This document shows, piece by piece, positions 8,208 to 62,513 of a stretch of 64,000 nucleotides of DNA. The notes under the pieces were generated by a model. It ran no database searches. It had not been told where the DNA came from and worked only from the letters and a program-made list of their open reading frames with translations. Origin of the DNA: Candidatus Dojkabacteria bacterium (GTDB lineage Bacteria; Patescibacteriota; Dojkabacteria; B142; JAFGFJ01); NCBI GenBank assembly GCA_016931155.1, contig JAFGFJ010000006.1, positions 13,115 through 77,114 of the forward strand. The letters run 5' to 3'. Position numbers and translations under genes: made by a program. How positions within the stretch are numbered: position 1 is the first letter of the stretch; the number at the start of each line of letters is the position of its first letter.

Positions 8208-8584
8208 ATAGCCTTTTCTTCAATCTGATTATCGGATAATTTATTAATACGCAAATACATATCTTCAGATAAATTAACTAAGTTTTAAACCAAAAATCCA
8301 GGCTTCTGTCCTGAACCATCTCAATATTTTAGTTCCTTTTTATCGAAGAAAAATCCAGTCTCAGCCTCATTGCCAAAGTATAACTAGATATACTAATTAA
8401 GTGTCTTGTTCTGTATATTCAAAATTATGAGAGGAAATGGTGGAGCAAGCTGGAAGAAGTTATGAACTACTTCAAAACACAGTCATTCTCCTTGCCTATT
8501 ATGGCATATAAGAATCTCTGACTGTCCGTTGAACACTCAAGAATGGAAACACAAATGCGTGAATACTTGGTATAATGTATACAG

Positions 8585-8851
8585 ATGAATAACCAACAAA
8601 AACTACAAAACATTATTAAAGAAAAACCCTATTTAGCCTGGGACACAAGACAATTCGACAAATTATCAACAGAAAGCATTGTAGAGAAAATCTTAAATTA
8701 CGGTCACTGGGAGGAGTATATGAAAGTGGAAGAAATAATAGGACTAAAAGAGGTCAGCCGCATATTTGATAAAATGAAAAATAGAAAAAGAGTAAATTTA
8801 AGGCCGCAAGTCGTAAACTATTTCAGTAAATACTTCAAAAAATATGCATGA
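8585..8851 (+). CDS. hypothetical small protein, putative cognate antitoxin of the downstream nucleotidyltransferase
   Basis: 88-aa ORF overlapping the downstream gene start by 8 nt; this operonic coupling is typical of TA pairs. Confidence 0.4.
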   Translation: MNNQQKLQNIIKEKPYLAWDTRQFDKLSTESIVEKILNYGHWEEYMKVEEIIGLKEVSRIFDKMKNRKRVNLRPQVVNYFSKYFKKYA

Positions 8852-9455
8852 GGAAATTCTCTCGGATGAACAAATAAAGATATTACCTACCCTGAAAGGT
8901 TTTTCCGGAAAGTTTGGACTTGTAGGTGGCACTGCTATAGCACTTTACCTGGGACACAGAAGATCTATAGATTTTGATCTTTTCTCTCAGGAAGAATTTA
9001 ATAACGATAATATTAAAAATACACTCAGAGAAGGATTTAATAATTTAAGTGTACTGGTAGATTATAAGGGGGAACTTACACTGGTAATAAATGGAGTTAA
9101 GGTGACATTTTACAAATTCCCTTTCAAAATAGCTTTCACAAAAGATATAAGTGGAATAATTAAGACACCTGACCTATTGACACTTGCTGCAATGAAATCA
9201 CTTGCTTTAGGGGGAAGAGGCAAATGGAAGGACTATATTGATCTCTACTTTATTTTCCAAAAATATTCTCTGTCTGAAGTAATTGAAAAGGCAAAAGACT
9301 TATTTTCAGAACAATTCAATTCTAAATTGATCAGAGAACAGCTTGCTTATTTCAAAGATATCGATTATTCGGAAAAGATTGACTACTTGCCAGGATTTCA
9401 AGTGGATGATCAATTAGTTAAAGATAAACTTACAGAAATAAGTCTGGAGAAATAA
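8844..9455 (+). CDS. nucleotidyltransferase AbiEii/AbiGii (DUF1814) toxin-family protein
   Basis: N-terminal FGLVGGTAIALYLGHRRSIDFDLFS matches the GG[ST]A...HR.S.D.D nucleotidyltransferase signature of AbiEii-type toxins. Confidence 0.6.
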   Translation: MHEEILSDEQIKILPTLKGFSGKFGLVGGTAIALYLGHRRSIDFDLFSQEEFNNDNIKNTLREGFNNLSVLVDYKGELTLVINGVKVTFYKFPFKIAFTKDISGIIKTPDLLTLAAMKSLALGGRGKWKDYIDLYFIFQKYSLSEVIEKAKDLFSEQFNSKLIREQLAYFKDIDYSEKIDYLPGFQVDDQLVKDKLTEISLEK

Positions 9456-9619
9456 GTTTTCTAAACTCTAAGAAATCGTTACAACTGCCTGTTTTTCCGG
9501 ATCCACTAATAATATAGATCATAAGTTTGTTATATTTTCTTTATCAAGGAATTTCAATAAAAATGGTCCTAGCAAAATGGATATTAGATGACTTTAAGAA
9601 ATTAATATCTTGTTTTTTC

Positions 9620-10243
9620 CTAAACTGATTCAAAGCCCTGCAAATGGTTATGTGTATCAAACTCTATTACCTTAAGTTTATCTCCGTATTCCAACATCGT
9701 ATACCCCCCTTCTGCTATTGTTGAATCCATAATTTCCTCACCAGAGGGTCTATAACTTTCATCAATTCGATAAATTAAATTTCCAATAAGTCCACCATGT
9801 GTAGAAATTAAAATATTTTCCAGGCTTTCTTTTTTCAATTCTTCAAAAAAGCATATACATCATCGAGAATTTGTTTAAGCGATTTATTGGTCTCTGGAGA
9901 GACAAACATTGGGTCAATTAACATCTTTCTTTGCAAATCTTTTCTGTATTCTTTAGGCTTAGAATAATCAATATATGCATATATTTCTGCCAGAGCATTC
10001 ACCGTTTTGATTTCTCCTAGATTTAATTACTTCTAACTATTTCAGCACTATGAATTGCACGGGGAAAAGGACTCGAAAAATGAAAGGTAAATTACAAAGC
10101 TCAGGAAATCTTTTATTCAGGATCTCAGCCAGTTTCTGAATTTGGATTATTCCAAACTTTGAAAGAGTTACTCCCCTCTTCACACTAAAGTCGGTGGACT
10201 CAACTTCCTGTTTTTCACCATGACGAAAAAGAAATATTTTCAT
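9620..10243 (-). pseudogene. histidine phosphatase (phosphoglycerate mutase family) gene disrupted by frameshifts
   Basis: The N-terminal MKIFLFRHGE (RHG catalytic motif) is at 10243..10037 and ends in a premature stop. The middle segment (~10030-9842) translates in a different frame as ...EIYAYIDYSKPKEYRKDLQRKMLIDPMFVSPETNKSLKQILDDVYAF. The C-terminal ...ILISTHGGLIGNLI is at 9838..9620 in a third frame. Confidence 0.6.
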
Positions 10244-10290
10244 AAAAACTTGTTAAAGACTTTTTATTATACTGAAAACGACTAAAGAGG

Positions 10291-10309
10291 AAATGGTGGA
10301 GATGGGGGG
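10291..10309. repeat. left direct repeat (att-like) AAATGGTGGAGATGGGGGG, a partial duplicate of the ssrA 3' terminus
   Basis: 15/15 nt identical plus 3 further matching G's to 18566..18584. On the minus strand this reads CCC(C)CCATCTCCACCATTT, i.e. the last 16 nt of the tmRNA plus 3 nt. Confidence 0.6.
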
Positions 10310-14793: not shown

Positions 14794-15390
14794 TTATTCC
14801 AACATCCCCGCAGCTAATCCTGCAGCATCTGGAAATGACATATTTACGTCTTCTGCATACATTTCAATCATAAAATCTAATATGTCCATTTCAGTTACGC
14901 CTGTTTTACTTTCTTTTCTAAGTGCTATGAGAGCACTTCCTGCTTTTGAATAATTTTCTTCGTTTATCTCCAGTGCATAAAGAGTCATTGCTTCATCAAG
15001 CTTCTCTTTTATTTCTGACTGTGAGTAGCCACCTTCAAAAGCAACTTCCATCATTTCTAATGCAGATGTTTCTTCCTGATCTTTACTATCATTATTAACC
15101 TCTGGTTCAGCCACTTCTGAATCAGTTGGGGTTATTGAGACTTGAGAGTTATCTGTTTTTGTATTTGACTCGGATACCCCCTCCTGAAATCCATCTGAAA
15201 AGCTTCCTAAAAGACCTGTGGCAATGCAATAAATGCATAATAATAGTAACGCTCCTATTACAAGGATGATTAGAACATTTTTGTTCTTCATAAGATAAAC
15301 AATAAAAAATAAACTAGCGGGGAAACTAAAAATGGCTCCCCATTCACCGATAGTCCTTTCGGAACTATCTACTAACCTTTCGGCTAGCAA
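14794..15390 (-). CDS. hypothetical membrane protein with an acidic low-complexity N-terminal region
   Basis: A central TM segment and C-terminal hydrophobic stretches; no family recognised. Confidence 0.4.
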   Translation of the reverse strand: MLAERLVDSSERTIGEWGAIFSFPASLFFIVYLMKNKNVLIILVIGALLLLCIYCIATGLLGSFSDGFQEGVSESNTKTDNSQVSITPTDSEVAEPEVNNDSKDQEETSALEMMEVAFEGGYSQSEIKEKLDEAMTLYALEINEENYSKAGSALIALRKESKTGVTEMDILDFMIEMYAEDVNMSFPDAAGLAAGMLE

Positions 15391-15479
15391 CTACCGCAAA
15401 GTAATGGTGAGATGGGAGAGCCATCTCTATCTTTGCGGTAGATTTTCATACCATGCCACTAAAAAGTGGTTTAGGTACT

Positions 15480-15960
15480 TAATGAATTATAATACTTTTC
15501 TTATGTTTGCTAAAAGTTTTTTGTATTTTCAAATAGGTATTGAAAGAAAGTATAAAAATTTTGGTATCCTTTTAGTACCTCTTTAGTACCCTTACTATAC
15601 AACATGGAAATCGATGAATACTCCTGGTGGATAAGGCAGTAAAGTCGTCGAGGAGACAAAGAAGATAACTAATAAATTTGGTATCGTTTTGGTATCCTAT
15701 TCGCCTGAAAATATCATCGTAATAGCTATTATCAAGACTATCGGAACCAAATGTATATTTTTGTTTTTTGGTACGGTTTTGGTCTTCTTTTGGTCAGGTG
15801 TTTTTAGGATGTATTCCTTGCGTTTACCTTATACAGAAGATTGTTTTAGGTATAAAAAGGGTAAATTCAGGGTACAAAAAAGGTGGAAATTAGGTGGATT
15901 TAAGGTGGATAAAAAAGGTACAAATTGGGTACATTTAAGGTGCATGAAAAGTGAATTTGG
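15480..15960. repeat. noncoding region with several families of short direct repeats (iteron-like)
   Basis: TTTGGTATCC/TTTAGTACC at 15551-15591. TTTGGTATCG/TTTTGGTATCC at 15676-15700. TTTTGGTACGG/TTTTGGTCTTC/TTTTGGTCAGG at 15765-15800. Three AGGTGGA units at exact 11-bp spacing at 15881-15913. GGTACA x3 at 15870-15945. There is no ORF over 60 aa. Confidence 0.6.
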
Positions 15961-15972
15961 TATAATTTTCGT

Positions 15973-16740
15973 ATGAGTAAAACGGAGGATCTATATCGAG
16001 AGATCATAAATACCATAAATCAATACGATTCTAAGCTTAAGAAATCTTTACTTATAGCACCTGCAAATTATGAAGATTGGCTTCGAGATTCATTTCCCCG
16101 TATAGTTACAACCGATAGGACTTTTACACAGGGAGAGGAAGCTATCTATGAATTTGAGAGATATCTTAAAGACAATTCGTTAAATATCATTGAATATGAA
16201 TACCTAGAGAAGAATTCGGAGCTTATTCCAGATGTAATTAATAGTTTATTTAAAGCTGGTGTATTACATAAAAAGAATAATTTGATCGTGTCTCCAGTGG
16301 AGCTGGGCGTTGGAAGTGGATTTGAATTTATTAAACAGGGTCATTTTAAGTTCTATCTGTATGACATAAATTGGAAGTATTTGAAAAAGAAAAAAATTCC
16401 GAAAATGGTTGATGTGGCAGCTGAACTTTTCGATATGGTTCTTACTGAATCTGGAGATTTAATTTATAAAGATAATGAAGTGAAATTTCAAGTTTCTGGC
16501 CAAAAGGGACAGTTTGCACTATTAAAGGCTTTGATGATACTACAAAAAAGACAAAATGACAGTAATATGCAAATATCAGAGTTTCTTGTCGTTAAAGAAA
16601 TGCAGAAATACAGTAATACTGACTTAGATTTTATTTCTCTTGTTAATGACATAAATAAGAAACTAAGCAAGAATAAATTTCCTTATAAAATTTCCCATCC
16701 TCAAAAAGCCTTTATTATTAAGCCATCAGATCAAAAATAA
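15973..16740 (+). CDS. hypothetical protein (island cargo, immediately downstream of the iteron region)
   Basis: 255-aa ORF with no recognised family. Confidence 0.4.
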   Translation: MSKTEDLYREIINTINQYDSKLKKSLLIAPANYEDWLRDSFPRIVTTDRTFTQGEEAIYEFERYLKDNSLNIIEYEYLEKNSELIPDVINSLFKAGVLHKKNNLIVSPVELGVGSGFEFIKQGHFKFYLYDINWKYLKKKKIPKMVDVAAELFDMVLTESGDLIYKDNEVKFQVSGQKGQFALLKALMILQKRQNDSNMQISEFLVVKEMQKYSNTDLDFISLVNDINKKLSKNKFPYKISHPQKAFIIKPSDQK

Positions 16741-16809: not shown

Positions 16810-16995
16810 ATGTCGAAAGATTTTCTAATTGAAGAAAAACCACTAATCACTATAAAAGAGGCTAGAAAAATTCTAGGTTCTAGATACACTGGTTTGTCTG
16901 ATAAAGAAATCGAAAATAAAATTGCTAGCCTAACGCGTCTTGCAAAGATACTTTTCAAGAATTTAAACCGTCAACGCGATTCTCCCACCAAATAA
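16810..16995 (+). CDS. hypothetical small protein upstream of the integrase (possible directionality/regulatory factor)
   Basis: 61-aa basic ORF directly upstream of the serine recombinase. Confidence 0.3.
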   Translation: MSKDFLIEEKPLITIKEARKILGSRYTGLSDKEIENKIASLTRLAKILFKNLNRQRDSPTK

Positions 16996-17051: not shown

Positions 17052-18638
17052 ATGGAAATAAAAAACAACGCATATGATGGTATTGGTTATATAAAAGTAT
17101 CATCCAAAAAACAATTTATTGAAGGTGTAAGTATGGAAGTCCAAAAGAAGAAGGTGACAAAACTTTTGGAAGATCATGGTTGCAAAAAAATAAAAATTTT
17201 CAATGATGATGGTATTAGTGGTCGTGATGTTGAAAAAAGGGATGCTTTCCAAGAAGCCCTGAAAATAGCTACGAAAACAAAGGTTAAATACTTTGCTACA
17301 TATGATACTTCTAGATTTGCTCGTAATACAGAACAGTCCATCCACTATTTCAAAAAACTTGTTAATCAGGGGACTGAATTTATTTGCGCAACGGGGAAAT
17401 TTGATAATTCTCCCAAAGGAACGTTAATGTTTAGTTTACTTGCCTCTTTTGATGATTATAGAAGTTCAAAAGATGGCGAAAAAATTAGAGCTTCGTTTCG
17501 TGACCTGAAACTTCAAGGGAGGTTCCCACATTGTGCTCCTCCTGGTTACGATAACATAAGGATTAACAAAAAAGCTGATATTATTCCAAATCAGGAGATG
17601 GCACCTATTCTAGCTCGTGCGTTGAAAAAGTTTGCGTATGGGGAGCTAATATCACAAGCAGATTTCTCTGATTATTTGTATGAAAATAATTTCGAGCATA
17701 AATGGAAACATTCAGCTATCAAAAAGAAAGCTAATCAGATGGCAGATAGGATTCTACATAATCCTTTTTATTGTGGTTATTTTGTAGATAAAGAAACCGG
17801 AAAAAGAATAAATCATGTATACAGACCCATTATCACAGAGGATGAGTTCAATCTAATTCAGGGGAGACTAGATAAGAGAAGCCGTGGCAGTATGATTAAA
17901 CATAAGGTGAGAGAGGAGTATCCTCTAAGGGGGGCTTTGTATTGTAGTGAATGCGGAAGTAGAGTTCGAAGTTATCCAAATAAAAAAAAAGATCGCAAAC
18001 ATATTCTCTATTATTACGACTGTTCCAAAAAGGGCTGCTGCAAAGGTACTCAGACGTATTTGATTCATGAATCATTAGAGCATATTTTAGGTAAATTGAA
18101 GATCCAGCCAGAGGAGCTGGATCTTTTTTATATTGTTATGCAGAGAGTTATTAAGAACGAGGAAGAAGAACTCTATTTATATGCCAATAAGCTTGATTCT
18201 GACATACACAAACTGAATAGAGAGAAAGAAATTGTTTTTGAAAATTTTAGTAAATGTAAGACAGATATTATGAGAGAAGAACTGGAGTTTAGGTACAATA
18301 AATTGGTAAATGAAATTGAAAATAAAGAAATAGAAAAAGAAAATAATAACCCTAATATAAAAAGCGGGCGGATCTTAGATGAAGCTATGGAATATATTGA
18401 AAGTCCTTTGCAGACTTGGGGTTCGTTAGTTATAAATTACAAGATTCAATACCGAGATTGGCTATTTCCAACCGGTTTAGAATATATCTCGGATAAAGGA
18501 TTGCGGGCGCACGAGATTAATAATGTTTACAATACTTTACAAAGCTTTGAGAGCAAAAAGCCTCAAATGGTGGAGATGGCGGGAATCGAACCCGCGTCCA
18601 TTAAACACAACCTAAAACAGTATTACAAGCTTCGTTGA
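17052..18638 (+). CDS. large serine recombinase (serine integrase)
   Basis: N-terminal resolvase catalytic domain (GYIKVSSKKQ with the serine nucleophile, DTSRFARN), a recombinase domain and a Cys-rich zinc ribbon (CSECGSRV...CSKKGCC). The 3' end overlaps the ssrA 3' end convergently by ~70 nt. Confidence 0.85.
   Translation: MEIKNNAYDGIGYIKVSSKKQFIEGVSMEVQKKKVTKLLEDHGCKKIKIFNDDGISGRDVEKRDAFQEALKIATKTKVKYFATYDTSRFARNTEQSIHYFKKLVNQGTEFICATGKFDNSPKGTLMFSLLASFDDYRSSKDGEKIRASFRDLKLQGRFPHCAPPGYDNIRINKKADIIPNQEMAPILARALKKFAYGELISQADFSDYLYENNFEHKWKHSAIKKKANQMADRILHNPFYCGYFVDKETGKRINHVYRPIITEDEFNLIQGRLDKRSRGSMIKHKVREEYPLRGALYCSECGSRVRSYPNKKKDRKHILYYYDCSKKGCCKGTQTYLIHESLEHILGKLKIQPEELDLFYIVMQRVIKNEEEELYLYANKLDSDIHKLNREKEIVFENFSKCKTDIMREELEFRYNKLVNEIENKEIEKENNNPNIKSGRILDEAMEYIESPLQTWGSLVINYKIQYRDWLFPTGLEYISDKGLRAHEINNVYNTLQSFESKKPQMVEMAGIEPASIKHNLKQYYKLR
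18566..18584. repeat. right direct repeat (att-like) AAATGGTGGAGATGGCGGG at the 3' end of ssrA
   Basis: Matches 10291..10309 (15/15 plus GGG, with one C/G difference). Confidence 0.6.
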
Positions 18639-19039
18639 TTTGTTTTAACGAATAAATTATAAAAATCAACAAAAACAATTTATCCGCGCTTTCAAACATT
18701 CTTCTCTTGTTACAAAGAAAGCATTTGTAATAGATGCATCCTGACTAAGTGACGCCTGTAAAACCCCATCAGGAGAGAATTTTGCAGACGGATGATAATC
18801 TCCGATAAATCGAAAGATTATGCAACGGCAAGATTAAGAGCAGGACTATTAAAGAAACCAGCAATTGCTGATTCAACCTTATCTCTCAATCTGCTGAAAA
18901 AATTTGTTTTGGCGTTTGTTGTTCGTCGTTCGTGGACCTTTGCGGCACCCGCGAACCAGATGAGTTATTTACGAAACAGCATCTGATGTTTCGGCCTGCT
19001 GCATTAAGCAGTTATTCAATGTCGAGACCATACATCCCC
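18568..19039 (-). ncRNA. ssrA: tmRNA (ssrA)
   Basis: Minus-strand 3' end TGGACGCGGGTTCGATTCCCGCCATCTCCACCA is near-identical in form to canonical tmRNA 3' ends (GGAC + T-arm + acceptor + ACCA). The 5' end GGGGATG-TATGGTCTCGAC pairs with the 3' acceptor strand CATCTCC and matches the GGGG...GGNUUCGAC 5' motif. An internal reading frame ends ...NSPALNLAVA-TAA (stop at 18820..18818), resembling ssrA tag C-termini. Confidence 0.75.
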
Positions 19040-58442: not shown

Positions 58443-58451
58443 CTTATCCAC
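58443..58451 (+). promoter_or_regulatory. consensus DnaA box TTATCCACA upstream of dnaA
   Basis: Exact 9-mer 74 bp upstream of the dnaA ATG. Confidence 0.6.
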
Positions 58452-58524
58452 AATTTTGTACCTTATCTAACACCTGATACTTCCAGACTGCTCCGGGAAA
58501 ACTTAATTTGTACGCGAACCAATC

Positions 58525-59904
58525 ATGAATATAGATGACCTGTGGAAAACCGCCCTTGCCCAGATAGAAGTAAAACTCGATTCTCCTGCCCAATATCAGA
58601 CATGGTTTAGAGACACCAAGCTCGTCGAAATTGACGGGAAAAAAGCAGTGATCGGAGTAAAAAATTCCTACGCTTCTGACTGGCTGAAGAAAAAACATAA
58701 TATTCTGATCAAAGACACTCTCTCTTACGTTTACGGAAAAGACCTTGATCCAACATATGAAGTAATAAGAGAAAAAGGGCAGTCAGAAAAACAGACAGAG
58801 GTTGTTCCGGAGAATGCACCACTTCTTGGAGTACAACAGGGAATGGATATGGAGCTTCGAAATATTATTAAAAAGTCCGGAATAAACGAGAAATACAGCT
58901 TTGCAAACTTTGTAGTTGCAGATTCGAATAGAATCGCACACGCCGCCGCAATGTCTGTAGCTGAAGGGAAGGCCAAAAACTATAACCCTCTCTATATTCA
59001 CGGATCGACAGGACTTGGGAAAACTCACATTGGACAAGCGGTCGGTCGATCAATTTTGGAAAAAGATCCAAACAAGAAAGTAATCTACGTTACAAGTGAA
59101 GGTTTTTTAAATGACATGGTCAGATCGATCCGGGAAGGTAAAGCAATGGATTTCCGTACAAAATACAGGACAGTAGACATATTTATAATTGACGACATTC
59201 AACTCATATCAAAATGGGTGGAAACACAAGGAGAATTTTTCAATACTTTTAACGAACTTGCAAACAACAACAAACAGGTAGTTCTGATTTCAGACAGAGC
59301 CCCGGAGTATATTGAAAACATTGAGGCACGGCTGAGATCAAGATTCCAGGGAGGAATTGTTGTAGATATTTCAAAGCCCGACCTTGAAACAAGAAAAGCT
59401 ATTCTCCTGAGAAAATCAACAGAATTTGGAATAGAGATAGAAGAAAAGACTGTGGATTATGTAGCTGAGATAATAACAGACAATGTCAGAGAGCTTGAAG
59501 GAGCACTCCAAAAAATTGCTCTCTACAGCACGATGTCTGAAGATGAACTCTCCCTTGAGGAGATAGCAAGGATACTTGGGAAAGATACAAAATCAAAGCA
59601 GGAAAGGGTTAAAGTACCAAATGTTCTTAAAAGAGTCGCAAAAGAGTATGGAATTACCGTAAAAGACATAAAGGGGCCAAAAAGAACTGCAGAAATTGCT
59701 TTCGCAAGACAGATAGCAATGTATATCCTTCGTGAGGAATTCAATTACAAGCTGGAAAGAGTTGCAGAATTCCTGGAGAGAAAGGATCACACAACTGTTA
59801 TTCACGCTGTAGATAAAGTTAGAAGCAAAATGCTCCTTGAAGAGGGTTTTAAGGATCAGCTGCAAATGATAATTTCTGAACTTCAAAATTCGGAAGAAAT
59901 ATAA
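58525..59904 (+). CDS. dnaA: chromosomal replication initiator DnaA
   Basis: Walker A GSTGLGKTH, box VII/sensor motifs and the C-terminal DNA-binding domain (...TVIHAVDKV...). Confidence 0.95.
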   Translation: MNIDDLWKTALAQIEVKLDSPAQYQTWFRDTKLVEIDGKKAVIGVKNSYASDWLKKKHNILIKDTLSYVYGKDLDPTYEVIREKGQSEKQTEVVPENAPLLGVQQGMDMELRNIIKKSGINEKYSFANFVVADSNRIAHAAAMSVAEGKAKNYNPLYIHGSTGLGKTHIGQAVGRSILEKDPNKKVIYVTSEGFLNDMVRSIREGKAMDFRTKYRTVDIFIIDDIQLISKWVETQGEFFNTFNELANNNKQVVLISDRAPEYIENIEARLRSRFQGGIVVDISKPDLETRKAILLRKSTEFGIEIEEKTVDYVAEIITDNVRELEGALQKIALYSTMSEDELSLEEIARILGKDTKSKQERVKVPNVLKRVAKEYGITVKDIKGPKRTAEIAFARQIAMYILREEFNYKLERVAEFLERKDHTTVIHAVDKVRSKMLLEEGFKDQLQMIISELQNSEEI

Positions 59905-60188
59905 GAATATAAGAAAAATACAAGAAAAATATCATTTCCAAAAGAGCTCCCCTGTCCCCATTTTATCGACATTTTGTTTCCACAAAATACCTGATCTAGT
60001 CAAATGTAAAATATCGAGCAGCTGGAGAAGCGGATTTCAGTTTACTAAAGTAGCTTATCCAAATATCCTTCCACATACTAAAAATTATGTCAGAGCTTGT
60101 AATTAAACACTTTTCAAAATACAATACACATATACACAAACTCTACTACCATTTCTACTATTTTTAATAAACGTAAATATTATTAGCA

Positions 60189-61316
60189 ATGAAAGTTTCA
60201 GTTCTTCAGGAAAATTTGTCAAAAGCTCTTGCTCACGTTACAAAAGCTGTTACAAACAAGCCAAGTATTCCCGTTTTATCTAATGTGCTTATTGAGGCAA
60301 AAAAGGGAAAGATTAAGTTGTCTGCAACTGATCTTGAGATTGGGATTAATATGTGGATTGGAGGAGATGTAATAATAGAAGGTAGTGTAACGGTTTCAGC
60401 ACGTCTTATTGCTGAATTTGTTGGTTCATTAAAACCCGGGAAACTCAATCTTGTTCTGGAGAAAAATCTTTTTAAGATTGAATCTGAAGATAATAGTGCA
60501 GAATTTACAATTATTCCTGCAGATGAATTTCCTCTTGTTCCGATGATAGAAGGGGAACCTCTTATAGTGCTAAATGCAGTAGAATTTGCGGACGGAATAT
60601 CACAGGTGACATTTGCGACAGCAAAAGATGATTCCAGACCTGTTCTTACAGGCGTCCTTTTTGAGTCAACTGAGAGGCATTTGGGAATGGTTGGGGTTGA
60701 TGGATTTAGACTTTCAAAGAGGAATCTGAAATTAGAAAAAGGTCCTAAGCTGGATTTCTTACAAATAATTCCCGCAAAAGCACTTGATGAACTCTCTAAT
60801 ATTGTCAAGGATATTGCTACTGATAAAGATAGTATGGAAATTTTCCTTCTGGACGACAAAAACCAGATACTTTTTGTTATTGATGATGTTCAACTTTCAA
60901 CAAGGCTTATTGAAGGAAAATTTCCTGATTACAAAACAATTATGCCGAAAGAGAACACCTACAAATTTGATATCTTAAAAGAAGAACTAGCAGCAACAGT
61001 GAGGATTGCAGGTATTTTTGCGCGGAACGTAATTGGTAACAAGACAAGATTTTTAATAAATCCCGAGAAAAAGAAACTTACACTTACAGCGTCTGTTATT
61101 GATGTAGGACAAAACGAAAGCACAGCAAGCTTAATTGAGGTGGAAGGAGATAGACTTGAAACTGCTTATAATGCAAAGTTTTTATCTGATATGTTAAATT
61201 CGATAAAAGGAGAAGAAATAATTTTCGAGACGAACGGAGTAACAGCTCCTGGTGTATTCAGAGATAAGGATGATAAGGATTTCGTGCATATTATTATGCC
61301 GATGAGGATTGATTAA
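60189..61316 (+). CDS. dnaN: DNA polymerase III beta sliding clamp
   Basis: 375-aa three-domain clamp pattern (MKVSVLQENLSKAL...) directly downstream of dnaA. Confidence 0.9.
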   Translation: MKVSVLQENLSKALAHVTKAVTNKPSIPVLSNVLIEAKKGKIKLSATDLEIGINMWIGGDVIIEGSVTVSARLIAEFVGSLKPGKLNLVLEKNLFKIESEDNSAEFTIIPADEFPLVPMIEGEPLIVLNAVEFADGISQVTFATAKDDSRPVLTGVLFESTERHLGMVGVDGFRLSKRNLKLEKGPKLDFLQIIPAKALDELSNIVKDIATDKDSMEIFLLDDKNQILFVIDDVQLSTRLIEGKFPDYKTIMPKENTYKFDILKEELAATVRIAGIFARNVIGNKTRFLINPEKKKLTLTASVIDVGQNESTASLIEVEGDRLETAYNAKFLSDMLNSIKGEEIIFETNGVTAPGVFRDKDDKDFVHIIMPMRID

Positions 61317-61385
61317 AATATTCTGTATGTAATTTTGTACACTTCCCTTCCACTTTGTTTATGTAGAAGCTACAATCCTTTTAGT

Positions 61386-62513
61386 ATGGTCTTTGAGGTT
61401 ATTTCTGAAGATAAAAAGAAAAGCTGGAATTCTTTTGTGGATAATTCTCTGTACGGAGATATTCTGCAGTATTGGCAGTGGGGAGAAACCAAGCGTGGCG
61501 AGGGTTGGAACCCAGTTCGTGTGTGGGTAAGAAGTCCACAAGAGAAAAATCAGGTTATCCTCATTTGTGCACAGATCCTGATTAAAAAAGTCCCCTTTCT
61601 AGGGAATTATATGTACATTCCGCATGGTCCCCTTTTCCTTCCAGGTTTAAATCTTGCAGAGGCGCGAGCCGCTCTAAAAACGTTTATTGAAGAGTTAAAG
61701 AAAATGGCAAAAGAAAGTGGCAGTTTTGCAATTGAGATTGAGCCGAAGATTGGGGAGTATGTTTCCGGTGTTGGAGAAATGAGTGATGGGCTTAGACATT
61801 TTACGGATGAAAGGCTTATTAATCTTTTTGAAAATTCGGGGTTTAAAAAGACAGGTAGAAATTTGCAACCGAAATATAAACTGCTTTACGATCTCTCAAA
61901 ATCAGATGAAGAGCTTCTCAATTATATGAAGAAAAATACGCGCTACAACGTGCGCTATGCCGAGAAGCATGGAGTGGAAGTTGTTGAGACAAAATTTTCA
62001 GATCCAAAGGCAAAGGAAAAATTTGAGAAATTCTATGAACTTCTGAAAGAAATGCAAAAACGCACAAAGGGTTATCCTGTACGTCCAAAGAGCTCTTTTA
62101 TGAGACTATTGAAAGAATTTTCGAAGACGCATAATCTTGTTTTTATTGAGGTGAAGCACAATAAAGAGACACTTGCTATGAATATTACTCAAAGGACAAG
62201 TAATTGGGCTGCAAGTTTTTATGCCGGTTCTACAAGGATCAAGTCAAATCTCAAGGCGACTTATCTTATGAGATGGGCATCAATTCAGAGTGCGAGAAGA
62301 TTTGGGAGCAAAGTATATGACTTCTGGGGATTTATTCCGAATTCAAAACAACACGAGGGGTACTCTGACAATAAATTAAGCTTTGGGGGAACAAGAATTG
62401 ATCATGTCGGGATAATGGGGCTACCTTTGAACAAAATTAAATATAGTCTTTGGAATTTGATGGTACCGGCAAGGAGGATTTTGTATGAAGCTATGCGTAT
62501 ATTAAAAAAATAA
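61386..62513 (+). CDS. FemAB/MurM-family peptidyl(aminoacyl)transferase
   Basis: N-terminal ...QYWQWGETKRGEGW... matches the FemX/FemAB family (QSWEWGE.K...GW). The start was placed at the internal Met. Confidence 0.6.
   Translation: MVFEVISEDKKKSWNSFVDNSLYGDILQYWQWGETKRGEGWNPVRVWVRSPQEKNQVILICAQILIKKVPFLGNYMYIPHGPLFLPGLNLAEARAALKTFIEELKKMAKESGSFAIEIEPKIGEYVSGVGEMSDGLRHFTDERLINLFENSGFKKTGRNLQPKYKLLYDLSKSDEELLNYMKKNTRYNVRYAEKHGVEVVETKFSDPKAKEKFEKFYELLKEMQKRTKGYPVRPKSSFMRLLKEFSKTHNLVFIEVKHNKETLAMNITQRTSNWAASFYAGSTRIKSNLKATYLMRWASIQSARRFGSKVYDFWGFIPNSKQHEGYSDNKLSFGGTRIDHVGIMGLPLNKIKYSLWNLMVPARRILYEAMRILKK

Follow-up and report, generated by a model that had tools for sequence, protein, structure and literature searches.

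In plasmid R1, the partition site parC consists of two sets of five 11-bp repeats that flank the par promoter, with one ParR dimer bound per repeat; these ribbon-helix-helix dimers coat the site cooperatively, the DNA is curved, and the same site serves as an operator (PMC2241845). In plasmid TP228, the parH/OF region upstream of parFG is composed of 20 degenerate tetramer boxes with AT-rich spacers, the distal part of which acts as the centromere and the promoter-proximal part as the operator (PMC3130281). Here we describe an array of comparable build in a stretch of 64,000 nucleotides (the window, that is, the whole stretch of DNA that was analyzed) from a metagenome-assembled genome of Candidatus Dojkabacteria (assembly GCA_016931155.1, contig JAFGFJ010000006.1, positions 13,115 to 77,114 of the forward strand). 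In this window, about 21 short repeat units occupy about 420 bp (15557-15976) in front of the operon of a large serine recombinase, within an island of about 8.3 kb (about 10.3-18.58 kb) that is inserted at the tmRNA gene. The reading that we favor, and hold tentatively as one that may well be true, is that the array is lineage-specific and cooperatively coated by a DNA-binding protein, and that it functions as an operator for the recombinase operon and possibly also for LOOT, an RNA that is encoded beside it.

The array resembles R1 parC in having exact 11-bp direct repeats that are clustered around or over the promoter of the downstream operon. However, R1 has 10 well-conserved iterons, whereas here about 21 degenerate boxes are distributed over four clusters and 420 bp, and the element is an integrated island, not a plasmid, in which no ParM-like or ParR-like protein is detectable. 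With TP228, the array shares some 20 degenerate tetramer boxes, AT-rich spacers, and a location upstream of a cassette encoding a larger and then a small protein; the TP228 boxes are ACTC with 4-bp spacers, an 8-bp period, and mixed orientation, in contrast to GGTR with 7-bp spacers, an 11-bp period, and near-uniform orientation here, and the island encodes no ParA-type ATPase. Because neither an NTPase nor a demonstrable ribbon-helix-helix protein was found in the island, membership in the ParMRC or ParFGH systems is unsupported. Direct repeats of 11 bp also occur in Pho boxes, which are bound by PhoB, and in SARP heptad repeats, where they stand in for the -35 element at a promoter whose -10 is good and are bound head to tail by a winged-helix protein, usually as 2 to 6 repeats. 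The present repeats likewise run, at 11-bp intervals, to the -35 position in front of a good -10, but they number 21, and no Trans_reg_C domain was detectable in any island protein. The iterons of Rep_3-type origins are about 17-22 bp long and well conserved over their length; RepB of pMV158 binds 11-bp direct repeats, and iteron origins adjoin the gene of their binding protein. Helically phased tandem direct repeats that adjoin the gene of a protein, here only a candidate binder, are common to these origins and our locus, which differs in its 4-bp core, in the lack of a Rep family or HUH motif, and in the absence of the array from sister islands. By analogy with R1 parC and TP228 parH/OF, the anatomy of the array, with its short box, AT-rich spacers, 11-bp period, and embedded promoter, is that of protein-coated operator arrays.

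A sequence-only reading of this DNA had reported at least four families of short direct repeats in the interval 15480-15960. We found that the repeats are present there far above chance, including three AGGTGGA units at exact 11-bp spacing (15881, 15892, and 15903) and the TTTTGGTAYC-like pair and triplets (15559-15600, 15676-15697, and 15766-15798); the number of families, however, was overstated, as there is a single 11-bp unit, wTwwGGTRyA, which is arranged in four clusters:

15557 to 15606, plus strand: array cluster A, four units at 11-bp spacing, TTTTGGTATCC, TTTTAGTACCT, CTTTAGTACCC, and TTACTATACAA
15674 to 15697, plus strand: array cluster B, two units, ATTTGGTATCG and TTTTGGTATCC
15764 to 15798, plus strand: array cluster C, three units, TTTTGGTACGG, TTTTGGTCTTC, and TTTTGGTCAGG
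15845 to 15976, plus strand: array cluster D, 12 units in 11-bp steps apart from phase slips of +2 and -2

The periodicity is pronounced. Autocorrelation at lag 11 was 0.447 in 15520-15975, compared with 0.284 ± 0.020 in 500 dinucleotide shuffles (z = 8.0), none of which reached the observed value; this segment ranked first among 456-bp windows of the whole 64 kb, and its autocorrelation at lags 22 and 33 was raised as well. GGTA was counted 12 times per 550 bp in the array region versus 132 times per 64 kb, and the densest 500-bp bin for GGTA/TACC held 14 copies versus a mean of 2.8. The pattern GGTR-N7-GGTR-N7-GGTR, for which no match is expected, had five matches in the window, all of them inside the array region, and matches to a five-box GGTR pattern in 11-bp phase, likewise not expected by chance, were confined to the same region. 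When the 21 units were aligned by their core, the four core positions were G in 16, G in 20, T in all 21, and A or G in 19 units, respectively, and the flanks and spacers around the core were A/T-rich and variable in sequence. Nearly every unit has its GGT core on the plus strand; the middle units of cluster A (GTACC at 15575 and 15586) fit better as GGTAC on the minus strand, which places clusters A and D in an inverted relation. Cluster D also contains a 35-bp higher-order duplication (15876-15910 and 15911-15945, each of three units plus 2 bp), of which the spacers are identical, and five of the six differences between the copies fall in a concerted manner on core positions 4-5 (GGTGGA versus GGTACA or GGTGCA). 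As read from the letters, this concerted change points to two site classes or to gene conversion.

Several other explanations of the repeats were tried and rejected. Restriction-modification sites were dismissed, with GGTACC and RGGNCCY both absent from the array region, and an array of DnaA boxes was dismissed because the boxes of the host are the canonical TTATCCACA at dnaA-dnaN and most units fit that box poorly. Coding repeats were rejected too, since an 11-nt period is not divisible by three. The earlier reading saw no ORF in the interval; mechanical ORFs of 84, 95, and 49 aa do cross the region, but an 11-bp repeat is not credible as coding. No Rfam match was obtained at E <= 1 within 15480-16100, the array folded as RNA gave modest scores (z = -3.0 for the plus strand and -2.0 for the minus strand), and a blastn search of the array region against plasmids and phages returned no match.

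The two ends of the array are occupied by promoters that point away from each other, one for LOOT and one for the operon that begins with a 255-aa ORFan:

15349 to 15477, minus strand: LOOT RNA (RF03000), 78.4 bits versus a gathering score of 46.4, full length (model positions 1-121)
15486 to 15513, minus strand: LOOT promoter, TTAGCA-16-TATAAT, 10 of 12 matches
15958 to 15966, plus strand: extended -10 TGGTATAAT, read from the sequence, inside the last full array unit
15973 to 16740, plus strand: ORFan of 255 aa, the variable slot gene of the recombinase operon, candidate array binder
16810 to 16995, plus strand: 61-aa protein with the motif KEARKxLG...LSDxE, kept in all homologous islands
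17052 to 18638, plus strand: large serine recombinase of 528 aa with Resolvase, Recombinase, and Zn_ribbon_recom domains

Within 14.7-17.2 kb, the LOOT promoter is the best of the sigma-70-type matches; its -10 ends 8 nt ahead of the LOOT 5' end, it accounts for the leftmost 40 bp or so of the interval 15480-15960, and array units at 15474 and 15536 flank it. At the other end, TGGTATAAT lies 6 nt ahead of the ATG at 15973, so that, judged by this spacing, the mRNA of the 255-aa ORF would be leaderless or near-leaderless. Our promoter scan requires a -35, and this extended -10 was therefore not among its matches; array units at 15939 and 15950 stand upstream of the TATAAT at 15961-15966, where no TTGACA-like -35 is present. 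Cluster D overlaps the operon promoter and reaches the extended -10. With the LOOT promoter at one end and the operon -10 at the other, the array fills a divergent control region, from which the rightward operon of ORFan, 61-aa protein, and large serine recombinase departs.

The island in which this control region is located is bounded by direct repeats of the tmRNA end:

10291 to 10305, plus strand: left island boundary, identical 15-mer direct repeat of AAATGGTGGAGATGG
18565 to 18579, plus strand: right island boundary, 15-mer AAATGGTGGAGATGG, equal to the tmRNA 3' terminus
18568 to 19039, minus strand: tmRNA gene (Rfam), the integration target

The 3' end of the recombinase gene overlaps the 3' end of tmRNA. 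Searches with the single recombinase sequence found nothing in genome or viral contigs; relatives were reached through one close recombinase in the protein database (38% identity, P0002), and a two-sequence alignment with it then led to five more metagenome loci, giving six homologous islands in total (L248-L253). In all of these loci that extend far enough (L248-L252), the recombinase 3' end likewise overlaps the tmRNA 3' end. Over the window and L248-L252, this overlap spans 30-80 nt, and the conserved ...GIEP... C-terminus of the enzyme is encoded antisense to the T-arm. A conserved protein of 57-72 aa is encoded directly upstream of the recombinase in six of six islands, and the 61-aa ORF of the window belongs to this family (E about 1e-6), which shares a KEARKxLG...LSDEQL motif and for which the following genes were recorded:

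L248 3625-3831, L250 1861-2079, L251 4932-5135, L252 6730-6930, and L253 3074-3274: small-protein genes upstream of the recombinase

Upstream of the small protein, each island has a variable slot gene of 255, 259, 263-269, or 362 aa, and the products are mutually unrelated by BLASTP. Neither the 11-bp array nor a comparable repeat was found in any of the six islands. The slot gene and its upstream region thus differ from island to island, whereas the small protein and recombinase are conserved, and hence the array and the ORFan appear to travel together as a lineage-specific pair. LOOT followed by a membrane protein is present in L253 (56 bits) and in L252, where its 40.6 bits fall short of the gathering score, in both cases on the strand of the recombinase operon and with no such spacer, so that the LOOT module of the window is inverted by comparison; the array sits where this inversion is. 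To the left of LOOT, the island of the window encodes a 165-aa membrane-anchored protein, a C5 methylase together with an endonuclease similar to EcoO109I, a 317-aa protein with no assigned function, and an antitoxin-like protein of the HTH-SocA/Panacea type; an HTH-SocA gene is also found in L252. In two of the relatives, interleaved inverted repeats in the order A-B-A'-B' (that of an H-type pseudoknot) follow a TATAAT upstream of the slot gene (L248 2718-2770 and L253 1862-1920); these may be a conserved leader element that the island of the window is without.

In the operator reading, the boxes, which recur once per 11 bp with AT-rich spacers between them, lie on the same face of the helix, and a sequence-specific protein would read the GGTR box in the major groove. 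Adjacent protomers would touch across the AT-rich spacers and thereby coat each cluster cooperatively, and the inverted clusters A and D may permit a loop between them. As the promoter-proximal cluster spans the -35 position and the last unit holds the extended -10, occupancy of cluster D would set transcription of the recombinase operon and, through it, excision or integration of the island; LOOT may be controlled likewise by the units that flank its promoter (15474 and 15536). Conservation of the GGT core, next to spacers whose variation is confined to A/T content, suggests selection on a short recognition box and not a recently duplicated unit. The position of the 255-aa ORFan suggests that it may bind DNA, and it is the most economical candidate for the binder because ORFan and array are both unique to this island. 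Of the sequence-only reading, the generic claim of a multi-site protein-binding array upstream of this ORF agrees with the anatomy, and the specific options that it named (an origin, recombinase accessory sites, and a centromere) are unsupported. An alternative candidate for the binder is the 61-aa protein, which could also be a regulator, a recombination cofactor, or a directionality factor.

A number of observations weigh against this reading. The array is known from one island only and hence has no comparative support for a function, and the 35-bp duplication indicates that part of it arose by recent slippage. Neither candidate binder has a demonstrable DNA-binding domain in profile searches, and both were negative against PDB sequence profiles. 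The ORFan had no Pfam match (even at E <= 10), no NCBIfam or PHROGs match, and no meaningful PADLOC match; its full-length single-sequence AF2 model was unusable (pLDDT 39); and for its C-terminal 95 aa, modeled as a hairpin, three helices, and a hairpin with pLDDT 72, Foldseek gave winged-helix ScpB proteins as the best match at a non-significant level (E = 0.14, TM 0.38), with nothing found in the viral structure library BFVD. In searches of 5.8 billion clustered proteins and of 1.84 billion representatives, the ORFan retrieved only itself, and a homology search with its positional analogue in L248 also found self only; the two show 24% identity (z = 2.7), which is weak and was not used as evidence of homology. 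The 61-aa protein matched no family and no PDB profile. Two structural impressions gained no support from Pfam and PDB profile searches, namely, that the 61-aa protein is a ribbon-helix-helix protein and that the C-termini of the slot proteins resemble OmpR-type winged helices; the latter is kept as a weak lead.

Gene regulation and mobile-element biology in bacteria of the candidate phyla radiation (CPR) are almost unexplored, and the array, whose 21 or so sites share a 4-bp box in 11-bp phase and cover a recombinase operon's promoter, offers a clean and testable system of protein-DNA recognition. Should the ORFan prove to be the binder, a protein without relatives would gain a function and the variable slot of this island family would be explained.

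Other explanations of the array deserve consideration. That it is the replication origin of the excised island, with the boxes as iterons, the ORFan as initiator, melting at the nearby AT-rich DNA, and help from host DnaA, was among the suggestions of the sequence-only reading, and we regard it as unlikely. Phased direct repeats do adjoin a gene of no recognizable family, the segment 15480-15560 is AT-rich, GGTGGATAA at 15626 and 15904 is one mismatch from a DnaA box, the genes on either side point away from the array, the cumulative GC skew passes through a local minimum at about 14-15 kb, and the order of secondary-structure elements in the low-confidence ORFan model is compatible with two winged-helix-like modules. 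However, the AT-rich segment may be explained by the LOOT promoter, and one-mismatch DnaA-like sites are common in the window (34), where dnaA (58525-59904), dnaN (60189-61316), and the cluster of perfect and one-mismatch boxes at 58444-61563 (58.4-61.6 kb) place the chromosomal oriC 43 kb away from the array. GC skew, which had been proposed as a check, tracks gene orientation throughout the window, and its turn near 14.5-15.5 kb coincides with the switch of orientation and is thus uninformative on an origin. The absence of the array from six of six homologous islands, which the sequence-only reading had named as a refuting result, speaks against a conserved island function as well as against an origin; moreover, no Rep_3, HUH, Rep, Par, helicase, or primase family is detectable among the island proteins, the ORFan lacks an HUH motif, and an 11-bp unit with a 4-bp core is far shorter than a classical iteron. 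The product of 15973-16740, proposed earlier as a binding protein or a Rep, has neither a homolog nor an assignable fold; it may be the former, and the latter is unsupported. Still more doubtful is a partition site that doubles as an operator and stabilizes an episomal island by the logic of type II parC/ParR or type Ib parH/ParG, even though R1 parC and TP228 parH/OF are the closest anatomical match (PMC2241845, PMC3130281) and the order of array, 255-aa gene, and 61-aa gene mimics parC-parM-parR and parH-parF-parG. The ORFan has no Walker A or other Walker-type motif and no actin-like NTPase signature, and no partition NTPase is present; the 61-aa protein has no ribbon-helix-helix family match and is kept in islands that have no array; and the element is integrated, a plasmid stage being without evidence. 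Accessory sites of the recombinase, a further suggestion of the same reading, are unlikely because the enzyme belongs to the large serine recombinases and acts at a crossover at the tmRNA 3' end, 2.6 kb off. Such sites go with small resolvases, whose res subsites lie at the crossover, or with tyrosine integrases that have an arm-binding domain, and the island encodes no detectable tyrosine recombinase. To our knowledge, large serine recombinases are not known to use accessory arrays.

A degenerate minisatellite or curved AT-rich DNA with no specific binder, produced by slippage in the gap that an inversion of the LOOT module left behind, we consider improbable to about the same degree as the origin. 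It would fit the uniqueness of the array to this island, the clear 35-bp higher-order duplication, and the opposite orientation of the LOOT module, without such a spacer, in L252/L253. GGT-containing 11-bp tandem arrays are, in addition, common in viral contigs (at least 120 loci), and among the matches listed there, the degenerate five-unit pattern mostly hit perfect 11-bp tandem repeats of unrelated origin. Neutral decay, however, does not predict the concerted core differences between the 35-bp blocks (GGTGGA versus GGTACA), and four separate clusters that share a core but differ in their spacers, a GGT core on the plus strand in nearly all units, and a last unit that coincides with a -10 element are also at odds with it. 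A role at the RNA level is very unlikely in our judgment. According to this explanation, transcribed UUUAGGUA-like units act as a sponge or target by pairing with the 5' end of LOOT, or LOOT recognizes the DNA boxes. The first 8 nt of LOOT (UACCUAAA) are the complement of the array unit TTTAGGTA, as of the unit consensus wTwwGGTR, a coincidence that is otherwise unexplained; a 16-nt segment of the LOOT 5' end recurs with 81% identity at 15837 and 15947; and in many genomes, LOOT and serine-recombinase elements are physically linked. Yet the exact 11-bp helical phasing points to recognition of DNA, the pairing partners of the invariant array positions are LOOT nt 1-4, the first two of which the family does not conserve, no promoter has been shown to drive a transcript across the whole array, and no array of this kind was found near LOOT at the other LOOT loci listed. 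This last result also implies that the array is not part of the conserved context of LOOT.

The sequence-only reading had allowed for a conserved small RNA in place of the repeats. Such an RNA does exist in LOOT, but it adjoins the repeats instead of lying within them, and it ends 3 nt short of the interval 15480-15960. Two further features belong to its module:

15315 to 15348, minus strand: LOOT 3' extension with predicted pairing to the internal P2/P3 region and a U-run after it, forming a terminator-like alternative helix (z -6.9)
14794 to 15291, minus strand: gene next downstream of LOOT and its usual neighbor, the 165-aa product of which has an N-terminal hydrophobic segment

A structure-anchored DNA pattern yielded four confirmed LOOT loci from IMG/VR and no fewer than 120 (at least 120) from GTDB genomes; Patescibacteria make up nearly all of the genome records listed. 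The segment of about 55 nt that lies 3' of the Rfam LOOT model paired with P2/P3 far more strongly than shuffled sequences did, with a median duplex z of -3.5 and 81% of 123 loci below -2; a control segment located 300 nt beyond it gave a median z of 0.12, with 4% below -2. In the examples inspected, a U-run follows the paired 3' segment. These data suggest a conserved, terminator-like LOOT 3' helix that is outside the Rfam model, with the logic of an attenuator or riboswitch-like element. A co-oriented ORF was located downstream of LOOT in 110 of 112 loci at a median distance of 72 nt; its sequence varies from locus to locus, and an N-terminal hydrophobic segment was found in 65% of these ORFs versus 24% of control ORFs. 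In a clustering of flanking ORFs, the commonest neighbor of LOOT was a large serine recombinase, which was present within 3 kb in 43 of the 124 loci listed, mostly in divergent orientation and 100-250 nt upstream; in three loci it was co-oriented and ended 24-58 nt before LOOT. Terminase and other phage genes were near LOOT in 11-16 loci.

There is a slim chance that LOOT is a working part of Patescibacteria serine-recombinase elements and that the array is a multi-copy target or decoy, read by LOOT or by a complex of LOOT and protein, that couples the level of the RNA to expression of the operon. If so, this would be an RNA-linked control of excision, which is so far undescribed for large serine recombinases. 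The link of LOOT to serine-recombinase elements, together with the 3' helix, is a by-product of more consequence than the array itself, since placing LOOT in tmRNA-targeting and other serine-recombinase elements and adding this helix make its function experimentally approachable.

Two minor observations concern viral arrays and the chromosomal neighborhood. An IMG/VR phage contig (L196, 9990-10140) carries five GGGTAT boxes at 11 bp followed by three TTTTGGTGG; this look-alike is located between an N6/N4 DNA methylase gene and small ORFs, near the gene of the terminase large subunit. In the window, an 11-mer of the tmRNA 3' end recurs at 8435-8445, to the left of the island. Between this copy and the left boundary of the island (8446-10290) are a gene for an AbiEii toxin (8844-9455) and part of a histidine-phosphatase gene, which is truncated (10037-10243). 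The segment may be the decayed remains of an older islet that was in tandem with the present island.

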